NCBI GenBank assembly: GCA_964608945.1
Contig: CAZSQB010000002.1
Location: forward strand, 1,262 to 46,571
DNA from: an uncultured Gammaproteobacteria bacterium
Lineage (GTDB): Bacteria > Patescibacteriota > Microgenomatia > Levybacterales > UBA12049
Reading direction: 5' to 3'
Length of the DNA stretch: 45,310 nt
The position numbers and the translations under genes are program-made. Of this stretch, positions 15,756 through 42,673 are shown one piece after another; positions within the stretch are counted from its first letter, which is position 1; each line of letters starts with the position of its first letter. The notes below the pieces were generated by a model. That model did not search any database. It was not told the origin of the DNA and saw only the letters and a list, made by a program, of their open reading frames with translations.

Positions 15756-15773
15756 ATTCCTCATCCTCATATC

Positions 15774-16481
15774 ATGAAACGCGTCGCATTAATTGGAGCA
15801 AGCGGACATGTGGGCAGTGCTCTTTTTAAAGAGTTATGTAAAGATACATCGCTCAGGGTAGAAGCAGTTATTCGTAAGAACTATTCTTTTTGGAAAAAAC
15901 GTAAGTTTGATATTGTTATTAACGCCGCGATGCCTTCCGCCCGTTTTTGGGCTGAAAATAACCCTCAGAAAGATTTTGTTGAAACGGTGAAAAAAACAGC
16001 AGATATTCTATACGATTGGAAATATAAAAAGATTATTCAGATAAGCACAATTTCTGCCCGAACCGAGCAAAATTTAATGTATGGAAGACATAAAGCCGCA
16101 GCAGAGACTCTCTGCAACTTTGACGAAAACTTAATAGTCAGATTAACCGCATTATATGCAGATACCCTCAACAAAGGCGCACTTATTGATATCATTAATG
16201 GGAATAAAGTGTATGTCAGTGAAAAAAGCAGGTATAGTTTTGCAAGTCTTGCATTTGTCTGTAAGTGGATCGCCCAGAATCTTGATAAAAAAGGTATCAG
16301 GGAAGTTGGAGCAAAGAATGCAATATCTTTAGAAGAAATTGTAAAACATTTGAAACTTTCTGTAGCATTTGAAGGGCGTATTGATATTCAAGAAGTGCAA
16401 AATCCCTCGCCTGGCTTTCCAGATGCAAAAGAAGTGTTATCCTATTTAGACAAGAAAATGAAAAAGAAATCGAGCGTATAA
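15774..16481 (+). CDS. Short NAD(P)-binding SDR-type sugar reductase/epimerase
   Basis: A Rossmann motif (ALIGASGHVGSAL) and a YxxxK motif (YGRHKAAAE) are present. Confidence 0.7.
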   Translation: MKRVALIGASGHVGSALFKELCKDTSLRVEAVIRKNYSFWKKRKFDIVINAAMPSARFWAENNPQKDFVETVKKTADILYDWKYKKIIQISTISARTEQNLMYGRHKAAAETLCNFDENLIVRLTALYADTLNKGALIDIINGNKVYVSEKSRYSFASLAFVCKWIAQNLDKKGIREVGAKNAISLEEIVKHLKLSVAFEGRIDIQEVQNPSPGFPDAKEVLSYLDKKMKKKSSV

Positions 16482-16484
16482 CAC

Positions 16485-17741
16485 ATGAATACGGCAATGA
16501 AAATTGATGCATGCAGAATTTGTCACAATAGGTCATTGCTCCCATGCATTGATCTTGGACGCCAATATCTTTCCTCGGTTTTCCCAACAGATTTACAGTA
16601 TCGTAAAGATGCGAAGAAATATCCACTTGACTTAGTGTTGTGTAAAAAGAATAAAGATACCTGCGGGATTCTTCAATTGGCACATAATATAAATCTCGAA
16701 TCAATGTATGAGTTATATCCATTCTCAAGCTCTACAAATTCTTCAATGTCCGCAATTTTACATGATGTTGTAAATACTGCTCTCCCACATGTTGATCTAA
16801 AAGATGAAGATATTGTCCTTGATATAGGTGGTAACGATGGAACACTTCTTTCTTTTTTTCGAGAAAAAAAATTAGATCTCTTAGCTATTGATCCAGCAAA
16901 AAATATAAAACAAGTTTTTACATCTCATCGATATCAGTATATAAATAGTTTTTTTAATAAACAAATATATTATGCAACCACAGATAAAAAAGCAAAGTTA
17001 ATTTTTAGCATTGCAATGTTTTATCATTTATCTGACCCAATAACGTTTTCTAACGATGTGGAAGCATGTCTTAGTAATGATGGAGTATGGGTTATTCAAA
17101 TGGCCTATTTGCCGCTTATGCTTCAGACTAATATGTATGATAATATCGTGCATGAGCATGTGGGATATTATACAACGCATAATATGGAATGGATTATGAA
17201 TAATACTGGACTAGAAGTATTCGACGTCATGCTGAATGATGTCTATGGAGGGAGTTTTCGAATATTTGTGAAGAAAAAAAATAACAAGAGGCTCAAAAAA
17301 TCAAAGAGGCTTTTGAAAGTTTTGCAGGATGAAGCAAATTTTGGGGTTAACAAAGTTCAGACATATCATGACTTTATGACTCGTATTAAAAAAACAAAAA
17401 AGGACTTACTGACACTCATAAAACAGATCAAATCGCAAAAGAAAAACATTTGGATTTATGGTGCTTCTACCAAAGGCAATACAATTCTTCAGTATTGCGG
17501 GGTATCAAGCAAAGACATAGAAGCGGCTGCAGACTCAAATCCATTCAAGTTTGGTAAATACATCATTGGTGCAGATATCCCAATTAAAGATGAAATGACA
17601 ATGAGGAAAGCAAAACCGGATTATTTACTTGCACTCCCATATAGTTTTATTTCTAGCTTTATGAAGCGAGAAAAGGAACTTATTAAATCTGGTAGCAAAT
17701 TTATTATTCCTCTTCCTAATGTTACAATACTACCAACGTAA
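16485..17741 (+). CDS. NDP-hexose C-methyltransferase-like enzyme (Zn-ribbon Methyltransf_13 N-domain + SAM MTase + Methyltransf_14 C-domain), paralog 1
   Basis: CRICHN...CKKNKDTCGILQL provides a four-Cys ribbon. Motif I is VLDIGGNDGTLL, and IVHEHVGYY and a C-terminal Rossmann-like IWIYGASTKGNT are also present. The same architecture occurs at 29536-30816 and 32588-33835. Confidence 0.8.
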   Translation: MNTAMKIDACRICHNRSLLPCIDLGRQYLSSVFPTDLQYRKDAKKYPLDLVLCKKNKDTCGILQLAHNINLESMYELYPFSSSTNSSMSAILHDVVNTALPHVDLKDEDIVLDIGGNDGTLLSFFREKKLDLLAIDPAKNIKQVFTSHRYQYINSFFNKQIYYATTDKKAKLIFSIAMFYHLSDPITFSNDVEACLSNDGVWVIQMAYLPLMLQTNMYDNIVHEHVGYYTTHNMEWIMNNTGLEVFDVMLNDVYGGSFRIFVKKKNNKRLKKSKRLLKVLQDEANFGVNKVQTYHDFMTRIKKTKKDLLTLIKQIKSQKKNIWIYGASTKGNTILQYCGVSSKDIEAAADSNPFKFGKYIIGADIPIKDEMTMRKAKPDYLLALPYSFISSFMKREKELIKSGSKFIIPLPNVTILPT

Positions 17742-18457
17742 TGTGTCCAATGAATTCCGTCATAGAAGTAGTCATTCCAACATACAACGAGCGAAATGGA
17801 GTCGTTCAAGCAATTCTTAGTATTAAATCCGAAGTGCCGGATGCTGAAATAATTATTGTTGATGATAACTCTCCCGATAACACTGCCAATCTTGTGAAGG
17901 CTCGCTTTAGAAAAGACAAAAAAGTTCGGGTAGTCGTAAGAAAGAAAAAAGGGGGAAGGGGATCAGCTGTTATGCGAGGGTTCAGCGAGGGGTTAAAAAA
18001 TAAACATGCAAAATATTTTATTGAAATGGATGCGGATTTATGTCACAACCCGAAATATATAAAACAACTTGTAGATACGTGCAGAAAAGCAGATGTTGTG
18101 ATCGCATCCCGTTATTTACCTGGGTCAAAAGTAACTGGATGGAGCATGAAGCGAAAACTTATGAGCCATGCAATAAACACTTTGGCGAAACTGTTATTAC
18201 GTATTCCAATCAGTGACTATACAGACGGATTTCGATGTTACTCAAGAAATACAGTTAAGTTTCTTTGTTCTCAGAAATTTCGATCACGAGGATATATTGT
18301 CCTTTCAGAGGCGGCGTTTTTGTGCTTCAAAAAAGGTTTTGTGTTAAAAGAAGTCCCAATCAATATTCACTTTAAATCCGTATCAAAATCAAATTTAAAC
18401 GCAAAAGAAGTAAAAGAAGCTCTCCTCACATTACTCAGACTACGTTTTTTTAAGTAA
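17741..18457 (+). CDS. Polyprenyl-phosphate sugar synthase-like GT2 (Dpm1/ArnC/GtrB-like)
   Basis: Motifs seen are VVIPTYNERNGV, IIIVDDNSPDNT, GRGSAVMRGF and EMDADLCHNP. The start overlaps the upstream stop (TAATG). Confidence 0.85.
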   Translation: MCPMNSVIEVVIPTYNERNGVVQAILSIKSEVPDAEIIIVDDNSPDNTANLVKARFRKDKKVRVVVRKKKGGRGSAVMRGFSEGLKNKHAKYFIEMDADLCHNPKYIKQLVDTCRKADVVIASRYLPGSKVTGWSMKRKLMSHAINTLAKLLLRIPISDYTDGFRCYSRNTVKFLCSQKFRSRGYIVLSEAAFLCFKKGFVLKEVPINIHFKSVSKSNLNAKEVKEALLTLLRLRFFK

Positions 18458-20284
18458 TTTACTTCTGCTTGAAAACCTCGTTAAGAAATGAAACAAGAGA
18501 TACCCTAACAGGCTCAAAAATCCAAGCATGCTTATTTTTTTTAAAACTCTTAAAACTAGAACATCTTCGTATATTACTTGTATATAATGAATCCCTTTAG
18601 GAAGTTGAAAGCGTATTACGCCTTCTGCATCATGATCTATGTTAATTAGTTTATTGTTGTCAAAAACTTGCCAACCTGGAAAAAACAAGGTGTTTTCTCT
18701 CAGTACTGTTGGCGTCTTTGCAAAGAGAATATATGTGTGTATTGTAGAACTTCGCTGTAGTTCTTTTATTTCTGCAAAGTTTTTTATAGTCTCTAGATGA
18801 GCTGGGGGGAGCTTTGCAAACCATGGATCTTTTTTATTTTTCCATTTAGAGTTAGCGTACCAATGTCCTTCTGCTTCTGACGTACTTTTCCATAGATTAT
18901 GAATAAGGTTTTGGTCACTAATTTCAGGAATAACTCGGCGATGTCCCCAATTTAATATTGTCGAAAAAATCGTAAGTCCAATGAGTAACAAAAGAAAGAT
19001 CTGCTTCTTCAATACATAGAAACTCAAATACCCTCCTAAAATTGAAGAGGCAAAAACAGTAAGAAGAAGCAGGCGATGTGATCCCCCAGTAGAACTGAGA
19101 AACGGCAGCATGCCCCATACGAATTTTGAATACTCTGTAATAAAAAAAATGAGTGAGATAAAGGCAAACAGCCAAAAGGTAATCTGGTATTTATGTTTGT
19201 TGGAAATTTTTTTGCGCAGCAACAATATGAGGAGGATGATGACAACAAGAATATGTGCATATCCTATGAGTAACGAGATCTCGCCACGTGACCCTTGGAA
19301 AAGCAATCCTATTCTCCATGGAGAGAAAAGGAGCATCCAGATTTGAGGAAAAGAACTGAAGCCACTGTATTGACTAACAATAGTATATTGTGCGAGAAAA
19401 AACGGCGTTAACCATATATAGAGAGTAGGGATGCTTCCAGAAATGAAAGTGGAAAGAGCAAGAAGAAGTACCTGTTTTTTTTTCAAGCTGAATGAGAGAA
19501 AGACTGCATAACAAGACAAGAGAACGATTGCAAAAAACGCAAGCACAACATGGCTCATGATAAGAAGCGCTACAGATAGAGAGGTCAGGATAAACCATTT
19601 GCCAGTTTTTTCCTCCCAAAGTTTTTGTAAAAAGAAAAATACAAGCGGGAGCAGAGTAAAAATCATGATTTCGCCGATGACAATTTTAAAATGCAAATCT
19701 ATCAAGTGGTATGGCGCAAATTGATAAAAAATTGCAGTTACAAAAGCAGCAAGGTTATTTTTAAGAAGTCTTCTTGCACAAAAATACATAAAAATTCCTG
19801 AGAGGAGAAAGTTTGTCGCCAAGAATAATTTCATGCTAGTGATGAATGAAAATCCCAGGAAATGAAAGAAGCTTATGACATAGTAAGGGAGCGGATAATT
19901 GAAAATAAAAAGTGGATATCCATATGTCGCGTTTAAATCTCCTGCCCAGGATGGAATAATAATTCCTTCTTTTAGCGAGTCGTAATATGCCATTGCCCGA
20001 TAAATATGCACATTAAAGTCGCCGCTTTCATATGTTCCAGGACGTAAAATGCTGAGAGTAGGTAGGATGGAAATTATGATAAGGAGGATAAAAAGCGGTA
20101 TTTGTTTTTTGGGAAAGATATATCGGTATGCCATGCTTCCTAAAAATACAGTCATTACTCCGATGATATTGACGACAACCATACGGTATGGCTCAAGCAT
20201 GCTGCTATAATAGACGAAATCCATATTCTTAAGCAAATATGAAGGTGTCATTTGTAACAACTGTTTTGAATGAGGAAGGGACAA
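18440..20284 (-). CDS. Large polytopic membrane protein, GT-C-like (resembles the PTPS-related membrane family)
   Basis: 614 aa with more than 10 hydrophobic segments. The first loop reads GTYESGDFNVHIYRAMAYYDSLKEGIIIPSWAGDLNATYGYPLFIFNYPLPYY, and a soluble C-terminal domain follows. The start is ambiguous among ATGs at 20284, 20251 and 20224. Confidence 0.6.
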   Translation of the reverse strand: MSLPHSKQLLQMTPSYLLKNMDFVYYSSMLEPYRMVVVNIIGVMTVFLGSMAYRYIFPKKQIPLFILLIIISILPTLSILRPGTYESGDFNVHIYRAMAYYDSLKEGIIIPSWAGDLNATYGYPLFIFNYPLPYYVISFFHFLGFSFITSMKLFLATNFLLSGIFMYFCARRLLKNNLAAFVTAIFYQFAPYHLIDLHFKIVIGEIMIFTLLPLVFFFLQKLWEEKTGKWFILTSLSVALLIMSHVVLAFFAIVLLSCYAVFLSFSLKKKQVLLLALSTFISGSIPTLYIWLTPFFLAQYTIVSQYSGFSSFPQIWMLLFSPWRIGLLFQGSRGEISLLIGYAHILVVIILLILLLRKKISNKHKYQITFWLFAFISLIFFITEYSKFVWGMLPFLSSTGGSHRLLLLTVFASSILGGYLSFYVLKKQIFLLLLIGLTIFSTILNWGHRRVIPEISDQNLIHNLWKSTSEAEGHWYANSKWKNKKDPWFAKLPPAHLETIKNFAEIKELQRSSTIHTYILFAKTPTVLRENTLFFPGWQVFDNNKLINIDHDAEGVIRFQLPKGIHYIQVIYEDVLVLRVLKKISMLGFLSLLGYLLFHFLTRFSSRSKLLKKT

Positions 20285-25137: not shown

Positions 25138-27961
25138 TAATCGTTTCTTTATTGCTCTATTGATTATTTTAGTTGTCGCCTCCTTTGTTTTACCAAACAT
25201 CTTTCTCCCAGCTGATATCTTGGGTACATTACCTTCGTTTCGTGAGGAGGAGTGGGTGAGGCCTCAGAACTCGTTGCTTGGAGATCCTGTGTTTCAATTT
25301 GAGCCGTGGAGGCAGTATACAAAATCACGATTGCAACGGGGGGAATTCCCTCTTTGGAATGAGGATAACAGCAAAGGAGCTCCATATTTTGCAAATATGC
25401 AATCAGCTATTTTATATCCGCTGAACTTTTTTTATTATTTGTTACCTGTTCATGTGAGCCTGTATCTTATACATTTTTTAAAGCTTTTTCTCCTATTATT
25501 TTTCAGTTTTCTTTATTTTCAATCCCTCAGATGCTCGAAGAATATATCTTTGCTTGGGGGAATAGTTGTAATGTTTTCCGCTTTTTCGTTTGTATGGCTG
25601 CAGTGGCCCCATACAAATGTATTTATATTATTTCCGCTCTTGCTGTTCATAACTGAAAAAATCAAGCAGATTACTACTGTGCATCGTTGGTATGTATTAC
25701 TCGCGTTTACGTATTGTATTGCAATATTTGGAGGACACCCTGAGACGCTCTTTCATATTGCACTCATTCATCTTTTCTATCTTTTGTTCCGATTGCATCG
25801 AGAACGAAAAAAGTTACTTGCTTCATTCGTTGCGATTGCTGGAGGATTTTTCCTGGGCGCAGTGCAGGTATTGCCATTTTTGGAATACTTTCTCAATAGC
25901 TATTCCTTAGTTCATAGACAAGAGGTACAGGAATCATTCTTTCTCCCCCTACAAAGTATTACACTTTTGCTTGTGCCATTTTCGCTCGGCGCACCTCATA
26001 TGGATTTTTACCGGTCCATTACAGGTACTAATTTCCAGGAAGCAATTGGGGGATATGTCGGGATTTGTGTATTGTTAATTGGGTTGATTGGAGGAGTGAG
26101 ATATTTTGCCAAAAATAAAATAATCGCATTTTGGACGGTTACTGCAGTGGCGTTATTTGGGATTGTCTATAAAATCTGGCCAATCTACCTGTTAACGAAA
26201 CTGCCAATTCTTAAACTGAGTGCAAATCATCGATTTTCAGGAATTATGGCGTTTGGTATTGCTGTTATTGCAACACTCGTACTAGACAATATGTCAAAAA
26301 GAAAAATTGTATTCAGTCAGAAAGCGAAAAAGAGAGCGTTTTTATTGTTAGTTCCCTTTTGCGGAGTGACATTGTTGGCAATTGGTTTACTTCCTTTGGT
26401 CTTTAGCTTTCCGTCCGCACGAGAGTTTGTGTTTATTTCTTTCCTGCAATTACATCTCTTGTTGTTGCTTTTTTCGACAGTGCTTTTTTTATTCTTCCTC
26501 TGGCTTCTTTTTATAAAGAAATCGAAAATAACGATATTTGTACTACTCATTCCAATTTTTGCTCAGACACTAGCGCTTTTTTGGAACTATAATCCCATTA
26601 CCACACAACGAGAGTACTATCCGGAAACAGAACTGATCACTGTTTTGCGAAAGCTTCCCAAAGGGTCAATCTTGGAAGTCGGGAATCCACAGTTGCCGCA
26701 AAATCTTAATCTCGCTTACGGATTAGAGCATATAGAAAATTACGACGTATTGGAGGTGCGAGCATTTAAAGATAAATTTAATAGACTTTTTCCTGATCGG
26801 AACCACTGGGAAAAAGTTGATTCGGTTAATGAGAAACATTTGCGAGAATTGGGTATCGCCTATGTTATTTCAGATTACGATCTACGATTTGAAAGACAAA
26901 AAAATCAGGTAGATTATAGCAACCGTTTAGCTCTTAGTTCAAAAAACATAAGAATTGCAATGAACTTCAAACCCGCACATTCAGATTTGAAAGCGATAAG
27001 AATCTTAACTGCCAACTTTAATCGGGAAAATAGCTGTTTACTTACTATTACTATTATAGAAATGCGAACAAACAAGAAAATAGAGGAGTCAGGACTTCCT
27101 TGTACGAAGATTAATGACAATATGTTTTATTCAGTTACGTTTAAACAGGCAGAATTGCATCCAGGCGAAGAGTATCAATTGATTTTTCAATCTCCAAATG
27201 CTTCCCTTGATAACAGCGTTGCGCTGCTTGGGAACAAATCAAGAGAACCATATCTTGAACTATTATATGGAGACAAGATGAATACTTCATACACACTACT
27301 GTGGAATAGAAATAGTGTGTATTTGTGGAATGTACCTGGTGTTTGGGATATTGGCTTTGACGGGAAAATAACGACACGCATACAAAGACCAGAAGAAAAA
27401 ATCTTTGAGACTTCGTCTCAGTCTGATCAATGGATTTACGTAAAACAGCCATACTATCCTGGTTGGGAAGCGAGAGTAGATGGGAGAGAAGAAAAGCTTC
27501 TCAACCAAAATCCATTTATCGCTCTCGACGTTCCCAAAGGAAACCATCTGGCTTCGCTGGTTTACAAACCGAAATCGTTTTTTCTAGGAATAGCGATAAC
27601 TTTTTTGACAACAATTGGACTAATCCTGTATTTCTTGCGACAAGAATTACAACAAGGTTATTGGGCTAATTTTTTTGAAAAATGGAAGATATGGGCGGCA
27701 TATATTAGATCCAACGTTCCATGGTATCAGCACGTCCTCGTATTCGGTGGGGGAGTACTTGTTTCACTTTGTGTTTTTATTCTTATTGCTCGCACGATAC
27801 CGGTGCATTTTTCCATGCCGCAAACAACTGCTATTAACTGGCTGACAGTGCATAAATATCCAAAACAATTGGATTACGTGTACTTCTTTATCGGATTCCC
27901 ACTCGTTACATTGCTTAGTGTTTTATTCTTGCTTTTATGGTTACGAAGAAAAAAACGTTAA
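25127..27961 (+). CDS. YfhO-family polytopic membrane glycosyltransferase-like protein
   Basis: About 944 aa. FEPWRQYTKSRLQRGEFPLWNEDNSKGAPYFANMQSAILYPLNF is typical of the YfhO N-terminus. Many TM segments and a large extracytoplasmic domain are followed by extra C-terminal TM segments. ATG 25127 is preferred over TTG 25118. Confidence 0.75.
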   Translation: MKNSNRFFIALLIILVVASFVLPNIFLPADILGTLPSFREEEWVRPQNSLLGDPVFQFEPWRQYTKSRLQRGEFPLWNEDNSKGAPYFANMQSAILYPLNFFYYLLPVHVSLYLIHFLKLFLLLFFSFLYFQSLRCSKNISLLGGIVVMFSAFSFVWLQWPHTNVFILFPLLLFITEKIKQITTVHRWYVLLAFTYCIAIFGGHPETLFHIALIHLFYLLFRLHRERKKLLASFVAIAGGFFLGAVQVLPFLEYFLNSYSLVHRQEVQESFFLPLQSITLLLVPFSLGAPHMDFYRSITGTNFQEAIGGYVGICVLLIGLIGGVRYFAKNKIIAFWTVTAVALFGIVYKIWPIYLLTKLPILKLSANHRFSGIMAFGIAVIATLVLDNMSKRKIVFSQKAKKRAFLLLVPFCGVTLLAIGLLPLVFSFPSAREFVFISFLQLHLLLLLFSTVLFLFFLWLLFIKKSKITIFVLLIPIFAQTLALFWNYNPITTQREYYPETELITVLRKLPKGSILEVGNPQLPQNLNLAYGLEHIENYDVLEVRAFKDKFNRLFPDRNHWEKVDSVNEKHLRELGIAYVISDYDLRFERQKNQVDYSNRLALSSKNIRIAMNFKPAHSDLKAIRILTANFNRENSCLLTITIIEMRTNKKIEESGLPCTKINDNMFYSVTFKQAELHPGEEYQLIFQSPNASLDNSVALLGNKSREPYLELLYGDKMNTSYTLLWNRNSVYLWNVPGVWDIGFDGKITTRIQRPEEKIFETSSQSDQWIYVKQPYYPGWEARVDGREEKLLNQNPFIALDVPKGNHLASLVYKPKSFFLGIAITFLTTIGLILYFLRQELQQGYWANFFEKWKIWAAYIRSNVPWYQHVLVFGGGVLVSLCVFILIARTIPVHFSMPQTTAINWLTVHKYPKQLDYVYFFIGFPLVTLLSVLFLLLWLRRKKR

Positions 27962-29532
27962 TTGCTGTTTCAGAAATTGCCGTAATTTTTCTGGTCGGAT
28001 TTTTGTTGGGACCAACAGCAGGGGGTAGCCTCTTTTATGGTGACGTCAATGTCATTGACGAAGGGCAATTTGCTGCTTGGGCGAACCATATGTTACACGG
28101 AAAATATTTATTTAAGGACATCTATATTACCTACGGTCCGCTGTACGCTTGGCCCCTCTTCTTATTTTTCAAGTTATTAGACCCATCAATTTTTCTTGTA
28201 AAAGCATACCTCACGATCGGTTCAGTTGTAGGAATTCTCATAGTGAATCAGTTGCTAAAGGAGTTGCGAATACAAAATATTCTGAGATATGTAACCATTG
28301 CTTTGTTTGTTTTACTTCCAGTTATGCATCTTCGGCAGGCAATGGGGTATATTGTTTTATTCAGTCTTTTCAAGGCAGTAGGAACAGGGCGACTGTTGTG
28401 GTATTTTCTCTGCGGAATCAGCCTTGTTATTTGTTTTCTCGTGAGTCCTGAGATTGGGATATTCACAGCAATGATTGTTATCTTGTTCTTCTTTATCCGT
28501 CTGTTGGTGGAGAACAATATCAAGGATGTCTTTTCGAATGGAGGCTTGCTTGTTGCAGGCGTACTGGCTGCCGGTATTAGCTTTATTTTTTGGGCTGGCT
28601 ATGAGGGGTGGTTGTTTTCGTATTTCCAAGGAACACTAGATATTATGACATCATTGTCTGGAATTAATTCTCCAAACGGTCAGAACTTTCCAAATATTCT
28701 CAATCAGTTGCCAGTAACAGCAGATCCAGTCCTGTTGCTAAAATTTATATTATCAAAGGATGCACTTTTGTATTGGGCATTGTTTTCTTACGTGTTGCTT
28801 ATTGGCTACTTGGCAATACGATTTATTCTGCAAATACATGAAAAAAAAGATCTGCAAATCGTACTTCTCACTATATACGGAATACTCCTCTATACCATTT
28901 TATTATCAAGAAATGGAATCGGACATTTTTTCTTTGTTCTCAGCCCACTTCTTATTTTAGCTGCTTGTTTTTTTGATAAATTGTTTCGCATACTAAGACA
29001 AAAGAAAACAAGACAAATTGAAAAAAATTTTGCAGTCGTGGGAGTTTGTATTATTGTTCTGTTTGTACTCCGTTTGCTTATGGTAAATCGACCAGAGATT
29101 TTTAAGAGATTACAGATTCCGTTTTCGATAAGTACACTTACGCAAACCCCACCTCGCTTTGGTCCCACAGCACTACCGTCAAGCCAAAAACAGCAACTAA
29201 ATATGATACAAAATTATATTCTTCAGCAGACAACAGCAGACGATACAGTTTTTATTATAAGCAATGAGCCAATTTTGTACATGCTTTTTGATCGTGTTAA
29301 TCCAACAAGATATGATTTACCCTTTGTCGCCAATCCACTTGAGAAACGATACGAGTTGCTTTCTGATCTTATACGAAACCCGCCTAAATATATCATTGAG
29401 AATCAAAAAGCCTGGGCTGTTGATGGCATCAGTAACCGCCAACGACTACCTGAAGTCTTTAGGTATCTAGACACAAAGTATCATAAGACAGCAATGGTAG
29501 GTGAGTACATTGTGTATGAAAGAAATAAATAA
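27937..29532 (+). CDS. Polytopic membrane protein, putative GT-C-like glycosyltransferase
   Basis: 531 aa. An acidic motif (NVIDEGQFAAWANHMLHGKYLFKDIY) follows TM1, with about 10 hydrophobic segments and a soluble C-terminal domain. It overlaps the upstream gene by 25 nt. Confidence 0.55.
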   Translation: MVTKKKTLIAVSEIAVIFLVGFLLGPTAGGSLFYGDVNVIDEGQFAAWANHMLHGKYLFKDIYITYGPLYAWPLFLFFKLLDPSIFLVKAYLTIGSVVGILIVNQLLKELRIQNILRYVTIALFVLLPVMHLRQAMGYIVLFSLFKAVGTGRLLWYFLCGISLVICFLVSPEIGIFTAMIVILFFFIRLLVENNIKDVFSNGGLLVAGVLAAGISFIFWAGYEGWLFSYFQGTLDIMTSLSGINSPNGQNFPNILNQLPVTADPVLLLKFILSKDALLYWALFSYVLLIGYLAIRFILQIHEKKDLQIVLLTIYGILLYTILLSRNGIGHFFFVLSPLLILAACFFDKLFRILRQKKTRQIEKNFAVVGVCIIVLFVLRLLMVNRPEIFKRLQIPFSISTLTQTPPRFGPTALPSSQKQQLNMIQNYILQQTTADDTVFIISNEPILYMLFDRVNPTRYDLPFVANPLEKRYELLSDLIRNPPKYIIENQKAWAVDGISNRQRLPEVFRYLDTKYHKTAMVGEYIVYERNK

Positions 29533-29535
29533 TAG

Positions 29536-30816
29536 CTATCTATATTTTTTCCCTTTTACAATTTTGGGGGTGGGGAGTGGAATAATGAAGTCTCCCTTAA
29601 AGCCTTTTTTTACAAGTTTTGGCATCAGCTCGTCTGCTATGTGCCATGAAAGCAGGAGCGCGTATTCTGGTTGATCTTTAAATAGTTTGTCCTCATCTAA
29701 AATGGGGATGAGCGTTCCTGGAATATAGTTGCCGATTTTGTGAGAGCCTTTGATCTCTACCACACATGAAATAATATCTTCATCTAACCCTAGGTAGTTA
29801 ATGAGCGTACTTGCACGAGACGGGGCAGAAATACCATAGATTTTTTGTCTCTTTTTAACAGAGTTAAATAGCAAATCGTATAACCGTATTTTTGAAAAGA
29901 CGACATCGTCTTTAAATTGTTTAAATCGTTTTTTATTTTTTACTTTGTCCTTTTCCATCTCCAGCATCTTTTTAACAGAGGGCAATACTTTATACTGTCC
30001 TTTTTTTGCAGCGTATACTCTGATTGATCCGCCATGTGGTTGTATTTGTTTGGCGTAGAAAACCTCAAAGCCGTGCATTTTGAGTAAATTGGCAAGGCTT
30101 GTCAGTGAGTAATATCGCAGATGTTCATGGTAGATAGCGTCATACTGTGTCGTTTGTAATAAGGAAAGGAGGTAATGGGATTCAGATATAAAAACGCCAT
30201 CTTTTACTAGAAGCTTTTTTATCAAATCTATTATTTCATGAACGTTTTCCATATGTGCAAACGCATTCGTAGAGGTTATGATTTTTGCTTTGCCGTATTT
30301 TTTAACAGCAGATTCGGCGGCCTGTTTTCCGAAATAAGAAAGTATTGTTGGGATACCGTTCTTAATTGCAATTTTACCAATATCCTCGGGAGTTATTCCC
30401 AGTACCTGATGATTTTTAAAATTGCCTAGTAGCGTTCCATCATTTGATCCAATATCGATGATAAGATCGTCTTTTTTTAATTTCAGCAGATGTGATGATT
30501 CCTGATAGAGGTCTGCAAAATTATCACGCAGTACCTTTGTTGTGCCGCTTGTATAGGGATATTCTGGGGGAAAGAGTATTTTCGGATCAACTATGAGACT
30601 GAGTTGTGCTAAATAACAACGTGAACAATACAATAGTTCCGCTGGATAACTCGGCTGTTCATGGGGAATACTCCCAATGGGGAGCAGTTTGTTAACCGGT
30701 GGGAGATAGCCAAGGAAGAGAATGCTTTCCAACTTTTCATTTCCACAACTTTGGCATGTGGTCACAACAATGCTTGTGCCGGTTCCGAATGCAAAAGGAA
30801 GCTTTTTTCTCTTCAT
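29536..30816 (-). CDS. NDP-hexose C-methyltransferase-like enzyme, paralog 2
   Basis: A Zn ribbon (CQSCGN...CSRCYLAQL), motif I (IIDIGSNDGTLL), AIYHEHLRYY and a C-terminal IYGISAPSRAST are present. Confidence 0.8.
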   Translation of the reverse strand: MKRKKLPFAFGTGTSIVVTTCQSCGNEKLESILFLGYLPPVNKLLPIGSIPHEQPSYPAELLYCSRCYLAQLSLIVDPKILFPPEYPYTSGTTKVLRDNFADLYQESSHLLKLKKDDLIIDIGSNDGTLLGNFKNHQVLGITPEDIGKIAIKNGIPTILSYFGKQAAESAVKKYGKAKIITSTNAFAHMENVHEIIDLIKKLLVKDGVFISESHYLLSLLQTTQYDAIYHEHLRYYSLTSLANLLKMHGFEVFYAKQIQPHGGSIRVYAAKKGQYKVLPSVKKMLEMEKDKVKNKKRFKQFKDDVVFSKIRLYDLLFNSVKKRQKIYGISAPSRASTLINYLGLDEDIISCVVEIKGSHKIGNYIPGTLIPILDEDKLFKDQPEYALLLSWHIADELMPKLVKKGFKGDFIIPLPTPKIVKGKKYR

Positions 30817-31763
30817 TGTTGGCTATTGTACCACATGTATGTTTCTCTTAGTCCCTCCTCAAGTGATACTTTTGGAGCGAATCCAAGACTCTTAATCTTT
30901 TTAATATCAGGACATCTACGATAAGTACTCCCTTGACGAAGTTTTTGAGGAGCAATGATAATCTTTTTGCTTACCACTCGCTCAATTGTTTGCATCAGCT
31001 TTTTTATCGAAACCTCTTCGGTTGTACCAATATTGTACGTTTCTAAATGTTTGCCATTTTCTAGAAGAAGGAGCAATCCATGGATAAAATCGTCCCTAAA
31101 GATAAACGCTCGAGTTTCATCACCAGATCCTTGAATCGGAAGGGTAAGTACTGATTTACTCCCTTGTTTTTTTATTTTCAACAGCAACTCTGGTATAACG
31201 TGTTCCTCTCCCATATCTGGTCCGTATACATTATGTGGGCGAAAAATAATCGATCTTTTGAAATATTTTCTCCCATAATGAATTGTCATTAGCTCGCTTA
31301 TGATTTTCCCTCCAGCGTATGAGTAGCGAGGATTGTATGGATCCGGTATCGTAAGCGGAACATTCTCAGGGGTTGGGATGAGGGGTGGCGTCTGGTACGC
31401 TTCAGAGCTAGATGCGAGAAACAGTTCGGGAACATTTTTTTCTCTCCCTGCATCCAATATATTTACTATCCCCTTCACGCCAATTTCCAACACAAGCTCA
31501 GGCTGTTCATAGAAATATTTCGTCCCGTTAATATATGCAAGGTGGATAATGCTGTCGACGCCATTACACGCTTTTTTTACCTGTTCAATATTCCGAATGT
31601 CTCCCTCAATTATTTCAGCATCGTTTTTGATTTCAGAAAGTCTTCGCTTTGCCCCTCGGAAATTATTGTCAAAGACGCGAACAAATTCCCCTTTGGAAAC
31701 AAGCGCTTTTGCAAGCGCACTCCCGATAAACCCTGTGCCACCAGTGATAAGATATCGTTTCAT
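30813..31763 (-). CDS. NAD-dependent epimerase/dehydratase (extended SDR)
   Basis: Motifs are ITGGTGFIGSALAKAL and a catalytic YxxxK in YSYAGGKIISE. The stop overlaps the start of the downstream C-methyltransferase (ATGA). Confidence 0.85.
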   Translation of the reverse strand: MKRYLITGGTGFIGSALAKALVSKGEFVRVFDNNFRGAKRRLSEIKNDAEIIEGDIRNIEQVKKACNGVDSIIHLAYINGTKYFYEQPELVLEIGVKGIVNILDAGREKNVPELFLASSSEAYQTPPLIPTPENVPLTIPDPYNPRYSYAGGKIISELMTIHYGRKYFKRSIIFRPHNVYGPDMGEEHVIPELLLKIKKQGSKSVLTLPIQGSGDETRAFIFRDDFIHGLLLLLENGKHLETYNIGTTEEVSIKKLMQTIERVVSKKIIIAPQKLRQGSTYRRCPDIKKIKSLGFAPKVSLEEGLRETYMWYNSQQ

Positions 31764-31814
31764 CTTTTTATGAAGGCGATGAGATTATATATAATTGCAA
31801 TGGATCAGTAAACA

Positions 31815-32591
31815 TCATTTGTGCCCAACAAGCATTTGTAATACACGATTAGGAAAGCGCAGGATGCGGTTTCGGAGCAATGCAAGAGAGAACCATTTTA
31901 AATAAGGAACAATAGATCTTGAGAGGTTAAAGTTTGTTTTACCATGTTGGCGATCACGCCAGATAGTGGGTATCTCGCAAATTTGATAACCAAGAAGGTG
32001 TGCTTTGGCCACTATCTCAAGCGTTACACTAAAGCTTACTGTGCTCGTCAGTTGCATACTATCAAGCACCTTTTTTCTGTAAAGCTTGTAGCTATTGGTC
32101 GGGTCGTACGTCGGTAGTCCTGTCAAGAGATGAAGAAGAAAGCCTGCGATACGCGGTATCCAGACTTTTGGGGATGGTCTCAGTTCCTGTCTGCCGTTTT
32201 TTGTATACCGTGACGGGCAGATAATGTCTGCCTTTTTTGCCAAAGACAAAAGCTTCGGTACCTGCGTCAAGTCATCGCAGAGGTCTGCCATGGTGACAAG
32301 GACGAGAGGCGCTTTCGCTAGCATAAAGCCGGTACGAAGAGCGCCCGATGGCCCGCTTTGGACAGTGTTTTTCCTGTAATGGAGATTTTTGTTCTGTCTC
32401 CCGAGTCGTCGAAGGACAGGAAGGGTAGAATCGCGTTCAGAGTCATACACGACGATTATTTCATGAGGAACGGGAATGTTTTTTCTTATAGCTTCAAGGG
32501 TCTTTTCGATGTTTGCCGCCTCATTATGAACTGGAATAATAACAGATAGGCCAGGATCACCGGTCGGTTTTATATTTCTTTTTTTTCTCAT
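31815..32591 (-). CDS. Polyprenyl-phosphate sugar synthase-like GT2 (Dpm1/ArnC-like)
   Basis: Motifs seen are LSVIIPVHNEAANI, IIVVYDSERDST, LVLVTMADLCDD and YKLYRKKVL. The start overlaps the upstream C-methyltransferase stop by 4 nt. Confidence 0.8.
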   Translation of the reverse strand: MRKKRNIKPTGDPGLSVIIPVHNEAANIEKTLEAIRKNIPVPHEIIVVYDSERDSTLPVLRRLGRQNKNLHYRKNTVQSGPSGALRTGFMLAKAPLVLVTMADLCDDLTQVPKLLSLAKKADIICPSRYTKNGRQELRPSPKVWIPRIAGFLLHLLTGLPTYDPTNSYKLYRKKVLDSMQLTSTVSFSVTLEIVAKAHLLGYQICEIPTIWRDRQHGKTNFNLSRSIVPYLKWFSLALLRNRILRFPNRVLQMLVGHK

Positions 32592-33835
32592 GGAACAATG
32601 CGCGGCACAGGCAGGGGAACGAGGAATTTGCCACCTTTTCTTATATATTCACTTTTCTCAAGGAAGAAATCCAGATAGTTCCAGCTAAGAAGCAGCGCAT
32701 ATTCAGGCATTAAAGCGATAAACTCCTCCTCGCTTATAATTGGAATGTGTGAGCCGGGAGTAAGCAGTCCTTGTTTTAGGGGATTGGTTTCAGCTATGTA
32801 TGGTATTACCTTTGGGGTGATGCCAAAATAGTTAAGAAGCGTGTTTCCTTTGGCTGGAGCACCGTATCCTCCTAATTGCGCTCCTTGTCTCTTTACTTTT
32901 TTGATAAGTCTCAGAACACTTGTTTTGACTTTTTTGACCTGGAGTGCGAATCTGTGGTACCGCTTCATATCTTTTACCCCCCAGGCAATTTCGTCTTTCA
33001 GCATTTTCTTAACCGAGCTTTTGACAAGTCGCGTACCCGGCTTTGCTACGAAGATACGCAGCGCCGGTCCTGATGCGCCGAATGGAATACGCTCTACGTC
33101 AAATATGCATAGATTGAAGCGGGCGAGAAACGGGACCATAGGAGTCAGGCTTAGATAGCAAAGGTGTTCGTGGTAGATGGTGTCAAAAATTGTTTGATCT
33201 ATCATATCGACTAAATATGGTGCCTCGATAACAAATATGCCCTGATCCTCAAGTAACAAAGGGAGTGCTGAAACGAACTCTAGTATGTCATCGACATGTG
33301 CAAACACATTTGTCGCTGTTACGACTGTTGCTCGACCATATTTTTTTGTAATCCGACGTGCGGATCTGGGATTAAAGAATGACTTGATTACTTCTAATCC
33401 AGATGCAACGGCTACTTCTGCAATTTTTGACGGCTCAACGCCAACGCGAATCAGCCCCTTCTTTGTATACCCGTTGAGTAGAATGCCATCGTTGCAACCA
33501 ATATCTACAACAACGTCGTCTTTTTTCAGTCTGAAGCGTACTGTTAGATACTCTGCGAGATTAGCATAATGTTTTTTCAAGGCTTTTGAGCTTGAAGAGA
33601 GATAGAGATAATCATCAAAAATTGCCTCAGCTGAGACAACGTCTATCAGCTGGACAAGATAACATGACTGGCAGAGATACACCTCAAGGGGGGACCGATG
33701 TTCTGTATTAATCTGGTCTTTATTTATAAAGCTGTTAGACGGCGGATGGTGACCTAAAGAGAGAAATTGTTTTAATTGGCTAGACCCGCAGTAACGACAC
33801 GTATTTCTTTTTTTGCTTATTACAGAGGTTCTCAT
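32588..33835 (-). CDS. NDP-hexose C-methyltransferase-like enzyme, paralog 3
   Basis: A Zn ribbon (CRYCGS...CQSCYLVQL), motif I (VVDIGCNDGILL), TIYHEHLCYL and a C-terminal LGGYGAPAKGNT are present. Confidence 0.8.
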   Translation of the reverse strand: MRTSVISKKRNTCRYCGSSQLKQFLSLGHHPPSNSFINKDQINTEHRSPLEVYLCQSCYLVQLIDVVSAEAIFDDYLYLSSSSKALKKHYANLAEYLTVRFRLKKDDVVVDIGCNDGILLNGYTKKGLIRVGVEPSKIAEVAVASGLEVIKSFFNPRSARRITKKYGRATVVTATNVFAHVDDILEFVSALPLLLEDQGIFVIEAPYLVDMIDQTIFDTIYHEHLCYLSLTPMVPFLARFNLCIFDVERIPFGASGPALRIFVAKPGTRLVKSSVKKMLKDEIAWGVKDMKRYHRFALQVKKVKTSVLRLIKKVKRQGAQLGGYGAPAKGNTLLNYFGITPKVIPYIAETNPLKQGLLTPGSHIPIISEEEFIALMPEYALLLSWNYLDFFLEKSEYIRKGGKFLVPLPVPRIVP

Positions 33836-33911: not shown

Positions 33912-34787
33912 ATGAAAAAGATATTGCTTTTTGGAGGGAGTGGCATGGTGGGTTCAAGAATTCTTGAGCTTCTTTCAAGTCGTTATACCATCATTGCTCC
34001 GAGACGTGATGAGGTGAATATTAGCGACAAAGCTCAGATAAAAGATACCATTCAGGCGATAAAACCGAACCATATTATCTATGCCGCAGCGGTTAGTAAT
34101 CCAGACGCTGCAGAAGAACAGAAAGAGTATGCGATGCATATTAATGCCATAGTACCAGGTTTCATAGCTAATCTGGCAGCAAAAGGGCGCTTTCCACTCC
34201 TCTATTTTTCAACGGACGCTGTTTTTCCAGGCTATCAGAAAGATAGGCCATATAAAGAAAATGACCGCGTGGATCCTGTAAATTATTACGGAATTACAAA
34301 GCAAAAAGGAGAAGAGAATGTTCTTAGTGCCTCTGGGGGAAACTGCGTACTACGGCTTATCACAGTGTACTCACATTACTACCCTAAAAAAAAAGATACA
34401 GTACGCTTGGCAGCCTCGGCATTTCAAAACGGCAAGCAATTTACAGGAATAGTTGATCAGTATTTTAATCCGACGTATGTTGACGATGCCGTTTTGGCTG
34501 TAGATCGAGTTATTGAGAAAAAGGTAAAAGGCGTGTTACATTTTGGAGCAGCAGAATTTGTTAGTAATTATGAATTCATAGAACATATTGCGCGAGTCGG
34601 TGGGTTCCACGGAATTGATATTAAGAAAATTACGGTAAAAGATTTCTGTAAAGGTAGAAAAGCAAAACTGGGAAAGTATGTTTGGCTTGATACTGCAAAA
34701 GCAAAAAATCTATTAGGAGAAGATGCGGTTTTACCAGTGGAGAAGAGTCTAAAGCGATTTTGGAAGCATTTTTCCTCAGAAACGTAG
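33912..34787 (+). CDS. RmlD-like NDP-4-keto-6-deoxyhexose reductase (dTDP-4-dehydrorhamnose reductase family)
   Basis: ILLFGGSGMVGSRI and a YxxxK motif (YGITKQKGE) are present, and the length and layout are typical of RmlD-family reductases. Confidence 0.7.
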   Translation: MKKILLFGGSGMVGSRILELLSSRYTIIAPRRDEVNISDKAQIKDTIQAIKPNHIIYAAAVSNPDAAEEQKEYAMHINAIVPGFIANLAAKGRFPLLYFSTDAVFPGYQKDRPYKENDRVDPVNYYGITKQKGEENVLSASGGNCVLRLITVYSHYYPKKKDTVRLAASAFQNGKQFTGIVDQYFNPTYVDDAVLAVDRVIEKKVKGVLHFGAAEFVSNYEFIEHIARVGGFHGIDIKKITVKDFCKGRKAKLGKYVWLDTAKAKNLLGEDAVLPVEKSLKRFWKHFSSET

Positions 34788-34838: not shown

Positions 34839-36116
34839 ATGAAGAGCACATTTCGTAAAAAAAAGATTACTGTGATAGGAATAGGAAGAGTAGGCTTGCC
34901 GTTCGCGCTCGTTCTTTCACACGCTGGTTATACTGTGTATGGAATCGGAAGAGATGAGACAAAAATCGCCGAAATCAGCAAAGGAAAAATGCCCTTTCAA
35001 GAAGAGGGAGCAGAACCTCTTTTAAAAAAACTTGCTACGAAACGCTTCTTTCCCACTATAGATTATTCGGTAATAAAAAAAAGTGATTTTATCATTTTAA
35101 CTCTGGGTACGCCAATTGATGAAAACATGAATCCCGTTTATGACCAGATTGACGAGTCTTTGAAAAAGGCTCAAGAGTTTTTCAGACCAGGCCAGACACT
35201 GATACTGCGAAGCACCGTTTCCCCAAGGACAACGCAATACGTACAATCGGCTATTGACGAAATTCAGGGATTGCAAGTTGGAAAAAATTTCTTCCTAGCC
35301 TTTTGTCCCGAAAGGATTGCTGAAGGTAAGTCAATAGAAGAAATGAAAACAATTCCTCAGATAATAGGCGGTGTCGATAGAAAAAGCGTAAATAAAGCAG
35401 AGGAATTGTTTAAATCGCTTGGTATTACAACTCTTTTAACTGACGATGTCTCTGCCGAGCTTGCAAAGCTTTTTACAAATATGTATCGGTATATTAATTT
35501 TGCTATTGCAAATGAGTTCATGGTCCTCGCACAAAATTATCATCGTGATATTTATAGAATTGTTGAATTAGTGAACTATAACTATAAACGCGGAGGATTG
35601 GCAATTCCGGGTTTGACCGGCGGGCCGTGCCTCTTCAAAGATGGTTTTTTTCTTATCGCAGATTTACCCTTTCAGGATTTAATTTCAACAAGCTGGAAAA
35701 TTAATGAATCTATACCATTATTTCTTATAAAAATAATACGCGAAAGGATGAGATTGAAAGGTAAAAAAGCAGTCATTCTCGGACTTTCGTTTAAAGCTGG
35801 CATTGACGATATTCGCGAGGCACTAAGTTTTAAGGTGAGAAAGGCACTACTTCGTGAACGTGCAGAGGTTGTGTTGCATGATCCATACGTACGAGAGTAT
35901 GTGAATCAATCTGTTGAGAAGGACATATATAAAGCGCTTGAAGACGCCGACTTAATTTTTATTGCAACGAATCACAAATTGTATACATCACTCGATATGA
36001 AGAAAGTAAAAGAGAAAGTGAAGAAAAATTGTATGGTTTGTGATGTATGGAATGTCTGGGGAACCGGAAAGATTGTGTATAAGCTGAATTACCTTAATAA
36101 AGAAAACGGAGAGTGA
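34839..36116 (+). CDS. Nucleotide-sugar 6-dehydrogenase (UDP-glucose/GDP-mannose dehydrogenase family), copy 1
   Basis: An N-terminal Rossmann motif (ITVIGIGRVGLPFALVL), FCPERIAEG, the catalytic Cys motif GGPCLFKDG and a C-terminal ILGLSFKAGIDDIREA are present. Confidence 0.85.
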   Translation: MKSTFRKKKITVIGIGRVGLPFALVLSHAGYTVYGIGRDETKIAEISKGKMPFQEEGAEPLLKKLATKRFFPTIDYSVIKKSDFIILTLGTPIDENMNPVYDQIDESLKKAQEFFRPGQTLILRSTVSPRTTQYVQSAIDEIQGLQVGKNFFLAFCPERIAEGKSIEEMKTIPQIIGGVDRKSVNKAEELFKSLGITTLLTDDVSAELAKLFTNMYRYINFAIANEFMVLAQNYHRDIYRIVELVNYNYKRGGLAIPGLTGGPCLFKDGFFLIADLPFQDLISTSWKINESIPLFLIKIIRERMRLKGKKAVILGLSFKAGIDDIREALSFKVRKALLRERAEVVLHDPYVREYVNQSVEKDIYKALEDADLIFIATNHKLYTSLDMKKVKEKVKKNCMVCDVWNVWGTGKIVYKLNYLNKENGE

Positions 36117-36830: not shown

Positions 36831-36870
36831 GTCAGTCTTGTATAATACAGCCATTATAACAAACGAAGTT

Positions 36871-40563: not shown

Positions 40564-40596
40564 TTCTGTATAATATCAGAATACCTATAATTGTAA

Positions 40597-42672: not shown

Positions 42673-42673
42673 C

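Follow-up and report, generated by a model that had tools for sequence, protein, structure and literature searches.

The window analysed here is a 45,310-nucleotide stretch of contig CAZSQB010000002.1, which comes from a groundwater metagenome. Its minus strand carries a row of four genes: two predicted zinc-ribbon C-methyltransferases (MT-A and MT-B) acting on nucleoside diphosphate (NDP) sugars, a small glycosyltransferase of family GT2 (GT2a), and an extended short-chain dehydrogenase/reductase (SDR). With moderate confidence, we propose that these genes are the core of a cassette that makes a polyprenyl-phosphate-linked, C-methyl-branched sugar, in a manner that resembles both the Arn pathway and the three-component glycosylation systems.

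The four open reading frames (ORFs) follow one another in the order MT-A, GT2a, SDR, and MT-B, and their coordinates (Table 1) reproduce exactly those of the first-pass annotation of this DNA. As had been pointed out there, 4-nt ATGA overlaps join MT-A to GT2a (32588-32591) and SDR to MT-B (30813-30816). GT2a and SDR are separated by a 51-nt gap, and an ATGA overlap taken alone is ordinary operon structure. The row had been described as a single coupled operon; the overlaps are present in the sequence, but comparative data reveal two separable pairs rather than one indivisible unit, with MT-A leading into GT2 and SDR leading into MT-B. The four-gene row of the window is two conserved coupled pairs placed side by side. 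At the far end, the stop codons of MT-B and of a convergent GT-C gene (29532-29536) are separated by only 3 nt, too little for a terminator to fit in. At the other end, an RmlD-like reductase gene is transcribed divergently from MT-A. A promoter and terminator scan was uninformative (13 sites vs. 11.5 ± 3.7 expected), and the one promoter-like site (10/12) that falls within the GT2a/SDR gap is given little weight.

The comparison set contained 80 genomic loci encoding relatives of MT-A, split at 48% methyltransferase identity. A GT2 gene lies within 2.5 kb in all 14 loci at or above this threshold and in 17 of the 66 below it. An orthologue of the SDR (50-60% identity) is found within 6 kb in 11/14 and 4/66 loci, respectively, and an NDP-sugar dehydrogenase within the same distance in 10/14 and 6/66. 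Fisher p-values for these enrichments range from 2e-7 to 4e-6, but are only indicative because the loci are phylogenetically related. Four loci were also seeded from SDR homologues, with the length of the contig as the sole selection criterion. In each of them the SDR leads into a C-methyltransferase, and the surrounding genes encode PMT_2 or YfhO proteins, a GT2 of ~245 aa, a dehydrogenase, and an RmlD-like reductase. The three GT2-seeded loci all run from dehydrogenase through C-methyltransferase and GT2 to a short SDR, and also contain a second C-methyltransferase preceded by an SDR; in L088 and L089, this second pair consists of an orthologue of the window SDR and a B-type methyltransferase. 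The pairing follows a rule, with A-type methyltransferases preceding GT2 and B-type methyltransferases following SDR. When a locus has a single methyltransferase, either type fills the slot between SDR and GT2 (A type in L079, B type in L087). The double methylation that had been suggested for the window is thus possible, but it is not implied.

Carriers of the cassette include bacteria of the Candidate Phyla Radiation (CPR), Woesearchaeota, Methanosarcinales, Omnitrophota, Verrucomicrobiota, Anaerolineales, Hyphomicrobiales, and Rhodospirillales, the last with cultured Magnetospirillum among them. The cultured carriers include Magnetospirillum moscoviense BB-1, Paramagnetospirillum marisnigri SP-1, and Magnetospirillum sp. 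LM-5 (loci L021, L009, and L005). The recurring set comprises an NDP-sugar dehydrogenase, an SDR of this family, a C-methyltransferase, an RmlD-like reductase, and a small GT2 with MAD at the DXD position. In most loci, and in several phyla, GT-C or other polytopic partners flank the cassette. Chance adjacency of the cassette genes is ruled out, as the set turns up in phylum after phylum, whether the comparison is seeded from the methyltransferase, the SDR, or the GT2. The first-pass annotation had called the arrangement unusual. It is so in the sense that no paper on a C-methyltransferase coupled to a polyprenyl-phosphate glycosyltransferase was found in the open-access literature and bioRxiv, but it is a widespread cassette and not peculiar to one genome.

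By every sequence criterion tested, MT-A and MT-B are members of the TylC3/TcaB9/MtmC family of sugar C-methyltransferases, as proposed at first reading. Pfam finds their three domains, with zinc ribbon, S-adenosylmethionine (SAM) core, and Methyltransf_14 all present. E-values for MT-A and MT-B, respectively, are 1e-20 and 4e-14 for Methyltransf_13 (PF08421), 4e-12 and 4e-15 for Methyltransf_23, and 4e-48 and 9e-37 for Methyltransf_14 (PF08484), which is matched over nearly the whole profile. SAM motif I reads DIGCNDG in MT-A and DIGSNDG in MT-B, aligned with EIGCNDG in TcaB9. The zinc cysteines (C13/C16/C55/C58 in MT-A and C21/C24/C64/C67 in MT-B) align with those of TcaB9, and all four are invariant across 92 homologues aligned with TcaB9 and MtmC. 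The catalytic residues of TcaB9 that were probed in PDB mutant entries 4e2w-4e33 also have their equivalents: Y76, H181, Y222, E224, and H225 are kept in both enzymes and in their clades. A third paralog (MT-C), expected from the first-pass annotation, is encoded elsewhere in the window and has the same architecture. When these three proteins are compared with all PDB sequences, the sole matches are the sugar 3-C-methyltransferases MtmC, KijD1, and TcaB9, from end to end. E-values to MtmC are 3e-82 for MT-A (4rv9, followed by KijD1 and then TcaB9), 6e-58 for MT-B, and 6e-54 for MT-C, and the values against solved TylC3-type members extend from 1e-40 to 1e-82. We looked for an affinity to O- or N-methyltransferases and for non-conserved ribbon cysteines, and saw neither.

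It is highly improbable that these enzymes act on something other than nucleotide sugars, whether a lipid-linked sugar or a non-sugar substrate, or that they carry out O- or N-methylation. The C-terminal domain of the family is annotated by homology only, and MT-C has a valine at the position of TcaB9 Tyr222, both of which would be compatible with another chemistry. However, MT-A and MT-B align over their full length with three NDP-sugar 3-C-methyltransferases of known structure and keep the catalytic and zinc residues, and both are tightly coupled to an SDR of a keto-generating class. MT-A and MT-B are therefore best viewed as candidates for SAM-dependent C-methylation beside the keto group of an NDP-4-keto sugar, at C3 or C5. 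Although they had been presented as two paralogs, and do belong to the same family, they are not a recent pair: they are only 36% identical and fall into separate clades, which rules out a recent duplication and indicates old lineages. The clade of MT-A comprises L001/L079/L002/L003/L023, and MT-A itself is 34-36% identical to TcaB9 and MtmC, outside their branch. Orthologues of MT-B directly follow the SDR in L001, L003, L015, and L084-L087 (63-69% identity) and in L088-L089 (58-66%). A first methyltransferase tree took in spurious overlapping ORFs from GC-rich loci, which were left out of the residue counts.

Methyltransferases of this family need a keto group beside the carbon to be methylated, and since the SDR is the sole candidate generator within the cassette, it would supply the keto sugar. 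The SDR has motifs SSSE and YAGGK, corresponding to a T/S-S-E triad and YxxxK. In 142 members of its family, the equivalents of UXS1 T118 (S/T), S119, E120, Y147, K151, N176, and R277 are invariant. The arginine, which is also the equivalent of ArnA R619, is present in 142/142, in a column that aligns YRRCPDIKK against QKRKPDIKK, and the equivalents of ArnA S433 and E434 are likewise shared. Together, the T-S-E triad and the conserved arginine are marks of glucuronic-acid decarboxylases, and the arginine has been used to recognise CalS9, AviE2, and EvdS6 (PMC10338323). The best solved relative of the SDR is human UXS1 (118 bits in a PDB sequence search); for the second best, PDB entry 8VR2, no paper was found. 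RmlB-type dehydratases carry a T-D-E triad, and 4-epimerases are not known to have the glutamate. A plain 4-epimerase is considered unlikely, as the glutamate at Y-2 is invariant. The gene had been annotated as an epimerase/dehydratase of the SDR class; the class stands, but the generic label gives way to the features of a UXS/ArnA-type decarboxylase.

A uronic acid for such a decarboxylase could come from the nearby NDP-sugar 6-dehydrogenase, whose TIGR03026 score is above cutoff and whose best PDB matches are UDP-ManNAc dehydrogenase (4r16) and Cap5O, then CalS8. This dehydrogenase is in one operon with the methyltransferase in Magnetospirillum (L009) and in Verrucomicrobia (L088 and L090, the latter showing an overlap of 4 nt), and it is co-directional with reductase, GT2, SDR, and methyltransferase in the archaeal loci L015 and L086, each of which has a single GT2. 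A 6-dehydrogenase makes no sense before or after a 4,6-dehydratase, yet a decarboxylase requires one, which favours an Arn-like route. The 4-keto substrate is thus probably generated in the Arn manner, through an oxidation followed by a decarboxylation. Among the Pfam-scanned ORFs of the window, none encodes a nucleotidylyltransferase or an RmlB-type enzyme. The first-pass annotation had listed a nucleotidylyltransferase and a 4,6-dehydratase as missing, but the decarboxylation route, with its operon-linked dehydrogenase, probably has no need for either. The C4 keto group could then be reduced by the RmlD-like reductase, whose TIGR01214 score (172 bits) is below cutoff. A similar reductase lies beside the cassette in L001, L084, L085, L087, and L089, and a shorter SDR takes its place in Magnetospirillum, L023, L088, and L090.

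The assignment of the SDR as a decarboxylase is nevertheless not secure, and several observations weigh against it. Its advantage for UXS1 is modest, as it also scores 108 bits to a GDP-sugar 4-epimerase and 98 to a putative 4,6-dehydratase in the PDB. The highest NCBIfam scores, at ~140 bits, are those of the LegB and dTDP-glucose 4,6-dehydratase profiles, although both are below cutoff, and the UDP-4-keto-pentose synthase model PRK11908 gives just 64 bits vs. a cutoff of 294. The T-S-E triad is found in GDP-mannose 4,6-dehydratases as well. The dehydrogenase could also work for another module, since in several CPR loci (the window, L001, L084, and L087) it adjoins a further GT2/PMT_2 pair. 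Finally, we found no characterised precedent for C-methylation of a 4-keto-pentose, and all characterised relatives of the methyltransferases act on 4-keto-6-deoxyhexoses, as their PDB names indicate. The NCBIfam scores, the T-S-E triad, the position of the dehydrogenase in these loci, and the substrates of the characterised relatives would fit a classical deoxysugar route, in which the SDR is an NDP-hexose 4,6-dehydratase, the methyltransferases act on an NDP-4-keto-6-deoxyhexose like TylC3, TcaB9, and MtmC, and the dehydrogenase belongs to the neighbouring module. The product would be a C-methyl-6-deoxyhexose, still passed by GT2 to polyprenyl phosphate and then used by a GT-C enzyme. We consider both this route and its product unlikely. 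The Asp of the RmlB-type triad is absent from all 142 SDR family members, the best solved relative is UXS1 and not a dehydratase, and the GMD model gives a weak 37 bits. Moreover, the dehydrogenase is operon-linked to methyltransferase and GT2, with one GT2 nearby, in L009, L015, L086, L088, and L090, and a 6-deoxy sugar can be neither substrate nor product of a 6-dehydrogenase.

GT2a carries PF00535, and its best PDB sequence matches are P. furiosus DPMS (E 8e-15), ArnC (2e-6), and GtrB (1e-5). An AlphaFold (AF2) model made from 58 homologues (pLDDT 93.4) was compared with the PDB using Foldseek, and the top 15 matches are all DPMS, ArnC, or GtrB (for DPMS, TM 0.74 and root-mean-square deviation 2.7 Å). 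As these top fold matches are exclusively polyprenyl-phosphate glycosyltransferases, the term “Dpm1-like” used in the first-pass annotation is justified at the fold level. GT2a is at the same time a distinct GT2 subfamily with a non-canonical DXD. It is without the canonical DXD (DAD) and DDxSxD, and reads TMADLCDD and VVYDSERDST. In this subfamily, to which the window gene at 31815-32591 and homologues P0187-P0306 belong, MAD is found in 118/120 members and YD in 106/120, with YDxxxDxT replacing DDxSxD. Of the DXD motif, the second Asp is retained, with an invariant C-D-D (C105-D106-D107) after it. NCBIfam has no equivalog for MT-A, GT2a, SDR, or MT-B. Against its polyprenyl-phosphate glycosyltransferase equivalogs (ArnC, PgfS, PpgS, and Dol-P-hexose transferase), GT2a reaches at best 40.8 bits vs. 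cutoffs of 370-529, which shows that it is not an orthologue of any named enzyme. Automated pipelines still label the subfamily “dolichol-phosphate mannosyltransferase.”

The unusual motifs of GT2a, together with the lack of a C-terminal transmembrane anchor (the model has short helices at 223-237 and 248-255 only), count against its role as a polyprenyl-phosphate sugar synthase. They would suit a system with no lipid intermediate, in which GT2a is a cytoplasmic Leloir glycosyltransferase that hands the C-methyl sugar from its nucleotide donor straight to a growing glycan or to a small phospho-acceptor, and the nearby GT-C enzymes use donors from the other, canonical Dpm1-like GT2s of the island. 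The distance to the NCBIfam cutoffs and the strong fold matches of GT2a to glucosyl-3-phosphoglycerate synthases (E about 1e-11) point in the same direction. So does the presence in the window of three other AglJ/ArnC-like GT2s that could feed the GT-C enzymes: in these small proteins (GT2b, GT2c, and GT2d) the motifs are canonical, and their likeness is to AglJ, Dol-P-hexose transferases, or ArnC. Even so, we find such a system quite improbable. DPMS, ArnC, and GtrB rank above every other GT2 both by sequence and by fold, and human-type DPM1 is likewise without a transmembrane anchor. A GT-C gene of an unnamed family is directly beside GT2a in the window, L001, and L087, and in Rhodospirillales cassettes that have a GT2a-type protein as their only GT2, a polytopic protein is found between SDR and methyltransferase. 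GT2a remains our candidate for the polyprenyl-phosphate sugar synthase.

That unnamed-family GT-C gene, the one convergent with MT-B, has no Pfam or NCBIfam match, and does not fall in a named family (PMT_2, YfhO, GT87, or ArnT). Its 66 homologues are all “hypothetical,” and 63 of them have no precomputed Pfam domain. The GT-C fold proposed for it is borne out by an AF2 model made from 64 sequences (pLDDT 92.4), for which GT-C enzymes take the first 31 places among the PDB matches (probability 1.0, TMq 0.45-0.55), including AftA, STT3, PglB, DPY19, Pmt4, ALG9/ALG3, Emb, AftB, and PimE. D41, in the loop after helix 1, is invariant across 64 homologues, as are G43, Q44, and W48, and it may have a catalytic role. 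The gene overlaps head-to-tail with the neighbouring YfhO and PMT_2 genes, and the same trio comes after the cassette in L001 and L087. PMT_2, GT87, or YfhO genes are also found near GT2 in L002, L004, L079, L084, L086, and L089, and GT2-PMT_2 fusion proteins occur in related loci (L079:13287-15884 and L089:9049-11607).

In Rhodospirillales and Hyphomicrobiales cassettes, a protein of ~500 aa with 8-10 transmembrane helices is inserted between SDR and methyltransferase (L004:8426-9970, L005:7497-8978, L006:5327-6838, L010:8422-9933, L011:8454-9974, and L012:7933-9435); the L004 copy was scanned and has no significant Pfam match. A comparison of the proteobacterial and Anaerolineales polytopic partners with the window GT-C family by hhalign gave no relation (E 0.05-0.4), a single sequence against a profile being a weak test, and the L005 insert shows a weak N-terminal motif resemblance to this family (E 0.08). 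One element of a lipid-carrier system weighs against the proposal by its absence: no GtrA, GtcA, or ArnE/F-type small flippase was seen among the Pfam-scanned window ORFs of at least 100 aa (at least 120 aa below 24 kb), in a scan that left out 27141-27452 and 40475-40888 (opposite strand, inside YfhO and GT2c) and ORFs under the listing limits. The sole flippase-like gene among the scanned ORFs encodes a MOP-family Polysacc_synt_3 protein (21198-22430).

A model of the pathway can be proposed by placing these proteins in sequence. We infer the catalytic steps, their order, the nucleotide, the methylated carbon, the lipid, and the acceptor from gene structure, family and fold membership, residue conservation, and synteny, and the fact that all cassette functions rest on such data is itself a point against the model. 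First, the dehydrogenase would oxidise a UDP-hexose or UDP-N-acetylhexosamine to the uronic acid. The SDR would then oxidise C4 and decarboxylate, releasing an NDP-4-keto-pentose. Using SAM, MT-A and/or MT-B would methylate the carbon beside the keto group (C3 or C5) in an active site of the TcaB9/MtmC type, after which C4 would be reduced by the RmlD-like reductase. GT2a would load the sugar onto polyprenyl phosphate at the cytoplasmic face of the membrane. Once the loaded lipid has been flipped, the GT-C enzyme would pass the sugar to a surface acceptor, possibly together with the PMT_2 and YfhO proteins encoded next to it. The first-pass annotation had already suggested that a C-methylated sugar is exported as a lipid-monophosphate donor for this GT-C enzyme. 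The linkage of methyltransferase, GT2, and GT-C across phyla fits this suggestion, and what changes is the origin of the keto sugar, now proposed to arise by decarboxylation.

This scheme has the same logic as the Arn system (Pmr; Ugd, ArnA, ArnB, ArnC, ArnD, ArnE/F, and ArnT), which places L-Ara4N on lipid A. In both, a 6-dehydrogenase and an SDR decarboxylase lead to a UDP-4-keto-pentose, which is tailored, loaded by a small GT2 onto undecaprenyl phosphate, and used by a GT-C enzyme outside the cytoplasm, and ArnC ranks near the top of both the sequence and the fold matches of the cassette GT2. The tailoring differs, however, with a zinc-ribbon C-methyltransferase and a ketoreductase in the cassette and an aminotransferase, a formyltransferase, and a deformylase in Arn. 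The cassette has no homologues of ArnB, ArnD, or ArnE/F, its GT2 is without transmembrane helices and canonical DXD, its GT-C belongs to a different, unnamed family, and its dehydrogenase is nearer to UDP-ManNAc dehydrogenase and CalS8 than to Ugd. The pairing of a polyprenyl-phosphate glycosyltransferase with a GT-C is shared with the three-component systems (GtrA/GtrB/Gtr* and CsbB/GtcA/YfhO), which include pentofuranose systems (Kelly et al., 2024; PMC11127046). GT2a has GtrB among its top fold matches, and YfhO and PMT_2 genes adjoin the cassette. However, known three-component systems load common sugars (Glc, GlcNAc, Gal, or Ribf/Xylf/Araf) and the cassette has its own predicted nucleotide-sugar tailoring pathway with C-methyltransferases, with no GtrA-like flippase found in the window.

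The methyltransferases share their three-domain architecture, zinc site, and catalytic residues with TylC3, EryBIII, TcaB9, KijD1, and MtmC. Those enzymes are encoded in antibiotic clusters of actinomycetes, next to RmlA/RmlB-type genes and soluble glycosyltransferases of family GT1, whereas the partners of the cassette methyltransferases are a dehydrogenase, a UXS-like SDR, a Dpm1-like GT2, and a GT-C, in CPR, DPANN, and diverse Gram-negative phyla. For the supply of the keto sugar, the nearest parallels are calicheamicin (CalS8/CalS9) and everninomicin (EvdS6), where an NDP-glucose dehydrogenase and an SDR decarboxylase provide an NDP-4-keto-pentose for tailoring, as proposed here. In everninomicin, the 4-keto-pentose made by the glucuronic-acid decarboxylase is the proposed C-branching substrate (PMC10338323). 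Unlike the cassette, these pathways use transamination or thiamine-pyrophosphate-dependent acetyl transfer instead of SAM C-methylation, and soluble glycosyltransferases act on the antibiotic with no lipid carrier. The virenose (6-deoxy-3-C-methyl-gulose) of Coxiella burnetii lipopolysaccharide is likewise a cell-envelope, non-antibiotic use of a TylC3-like C-methyltransferase. Its pathway has been proposed in silico, from GDP-mannose via a 4,6-dehydratase with conventional O-antigen assembly (PMC3539893), and differs in having no Dpm1-like GT2 or GT-C coupling.

Table 1. Genes of the proposed cassette and its surroundings in the window, with candidate functions.
Feature	Position	Strand	Length	Basis
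MT-A, Zn-ribbon NDP-sugar C-methyltransferase, A-type lineage (predicted)	32588..33835	minus	415 aa	Pfam, PDB matches, conserved residues
GT2a, small GT2 without transmembrane segment, polyprenyl-phosphate glycosyltransferase-like	31815..32591	minus	258 aa	PF00535, sequence and fold
SDR, extended; candidate NDP-uronic acid 4-oxidase/decarboxylase	30813..31763	minus	316 aa	UXS1 likeness, invariant residues
MT-B, second Zn-ribbon C-methyltransferase, B-type lineage (predicted)	29536..30816	minus	426 aa	Pfam, MtmC match
RmlD-like reductase, candidate 4-ketoreductase	33912..34787	plus	291 aa	RmlD_sub_bind E 1e-53
NDP-sugar 6-dehydrogenase, candidate uronic acid supplier	34839..36116	plus	425 aa	TIGR03026, 321 bits
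GT-C-fold glycosyltransferase, unnamed family, candidate lipid-linked sugar user	27937..29532	plus	531 aa	AF2 model and fold search
PMT_2 GT-C gene	23635-25137	plus		Pfam
YfhO GT-C gene	25118-27961	plus		Pfam
Second C-methyltransferase module (cupin, short SDR-like protein, MT-C, GT2d, convergent GT-C)	15363..20284			Pfam

The cassette is part of a larger glycosylation island of ~32 kb that comes after a block of housekeeping genes (class I aminoacyl-tRNA synthetase, FtsW/RodA, L21, ParB, signal peptidase, and tRNA-Val) at ~3-10 kb of the window. Upstream of this block are a PMT_2 GT-C gene (478-2088) and a class I methyltransferase (2070-2777). In total, the window has at least eight GT2 genes and at least seven GT-C-like genes. 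The GT-C genes are unusually dense for 45 kb (478-2088, 18440-20284, 23635-29532, 36790-38406, and 42632-44551), and each is near a small Dpm1/AglJ-like GT2. The closest relatives of the window are CPR genomes such as Levybacteria and Daviesbacteria. Locus L001 (CAYWEP010000005.1), labelled “uncultured Gammaproteobacteria,” matches over ~20 kb the gene set at 23.6-40.6 kb of the window, with 35-86% amino-acid identity and nearly the same gene order, one block being rearranged. As L001 shares this gene set while the other close relatives are CPR, its taxonomic label looks doubtful.

The second C-methyltransferase module is on the plus strand, where a cupin (15363-15755) and a short SDR-like protein (15774-16481) precede MT-C (16485-17741). 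MT-C overlaps by 1 nt with GT2d (17741-18457), a canonical DAD-type, Dpm1/ArnC-like protein, and a convergent PTPS_related/PMT_2 GT-C gene follows (18440-20284). Relatives of the short SDR-like protein sit between methyltransferase and GT2 in Magnetospirillum, L023, L088, and L090. Besides the dehydrogenase described above, the window encodes another NDP-sugar dehydrogenase (38530-39864). The PMT_2 ORF listed from a GTG at 36790 overlaps an opposite-strand GT2 (36123-37010) by 221 nt, and its true start probably lies downstream. Further along, a 160-aa ORF and a polytopic 444-aa ORF (40597-42410), both with no Pfam match, adjoin a small GT2 (39850-40563). The 444-aa protein has a 34% identical homologue (E 2e-60), with a 147-aa partner, beside a small GT2 in a soil contig (L084:9956-11730), and may thus represent a further membrane family, as yet without a name, that goes with lipid-phosphate sugar synthases.

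C-branched sugars have been described mainly in antibiotic pathways, with a few cases in lipopolysaccharide. To our knowledge, the sugars delivered by lipid-monophosphate donors in extracytoplasmic glycosylation are all common or lightly modified ones. If the proposal is correct, the cassette would add a new class of donor sugar to the three-component systems and would point to an unusual surface sugar on organisms whose envelopes are nearly unstudied. Hundreds of genes of CPR, DPANN, and other little-studied lineages that at present bear the labels “SDR family oxidoreductase,” “class I methyltransferase,” “dolichol-phosphate mannosyltransferase,” or “hypothetical protein” would gain a function. 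A GT-C family would be newly defined, as would a subfamily of GT2 whose metal and nucleotide motif is non-canonical. The presence of the cassette in cultured Magnetospirillum species makes the hypothesis directly testable. More tentatively, and at slightly less than even odds, there may be a widespread cross-domain pathway leading to a polyprenyl-phosphate-linked C-methyl pentose, or else to a 6-deoxy or 3-C-methyl-6-deoxy skeleton, for which SAM would methylate, at C5 and/or C3, a 4-keto-pentose obtained by decarboxylation. In such a pathway, the new MAD subfamily of GT2 would supply new families of GT-C enzymes acting on the envelopes of CPR bacteria, DPANN archaea, and many Gram-negative phyla, and C-methyl branched-sugar chemistry would for the first time be seen joined to glycosylation outside the cytoplasm that depends on a lipid carrier.

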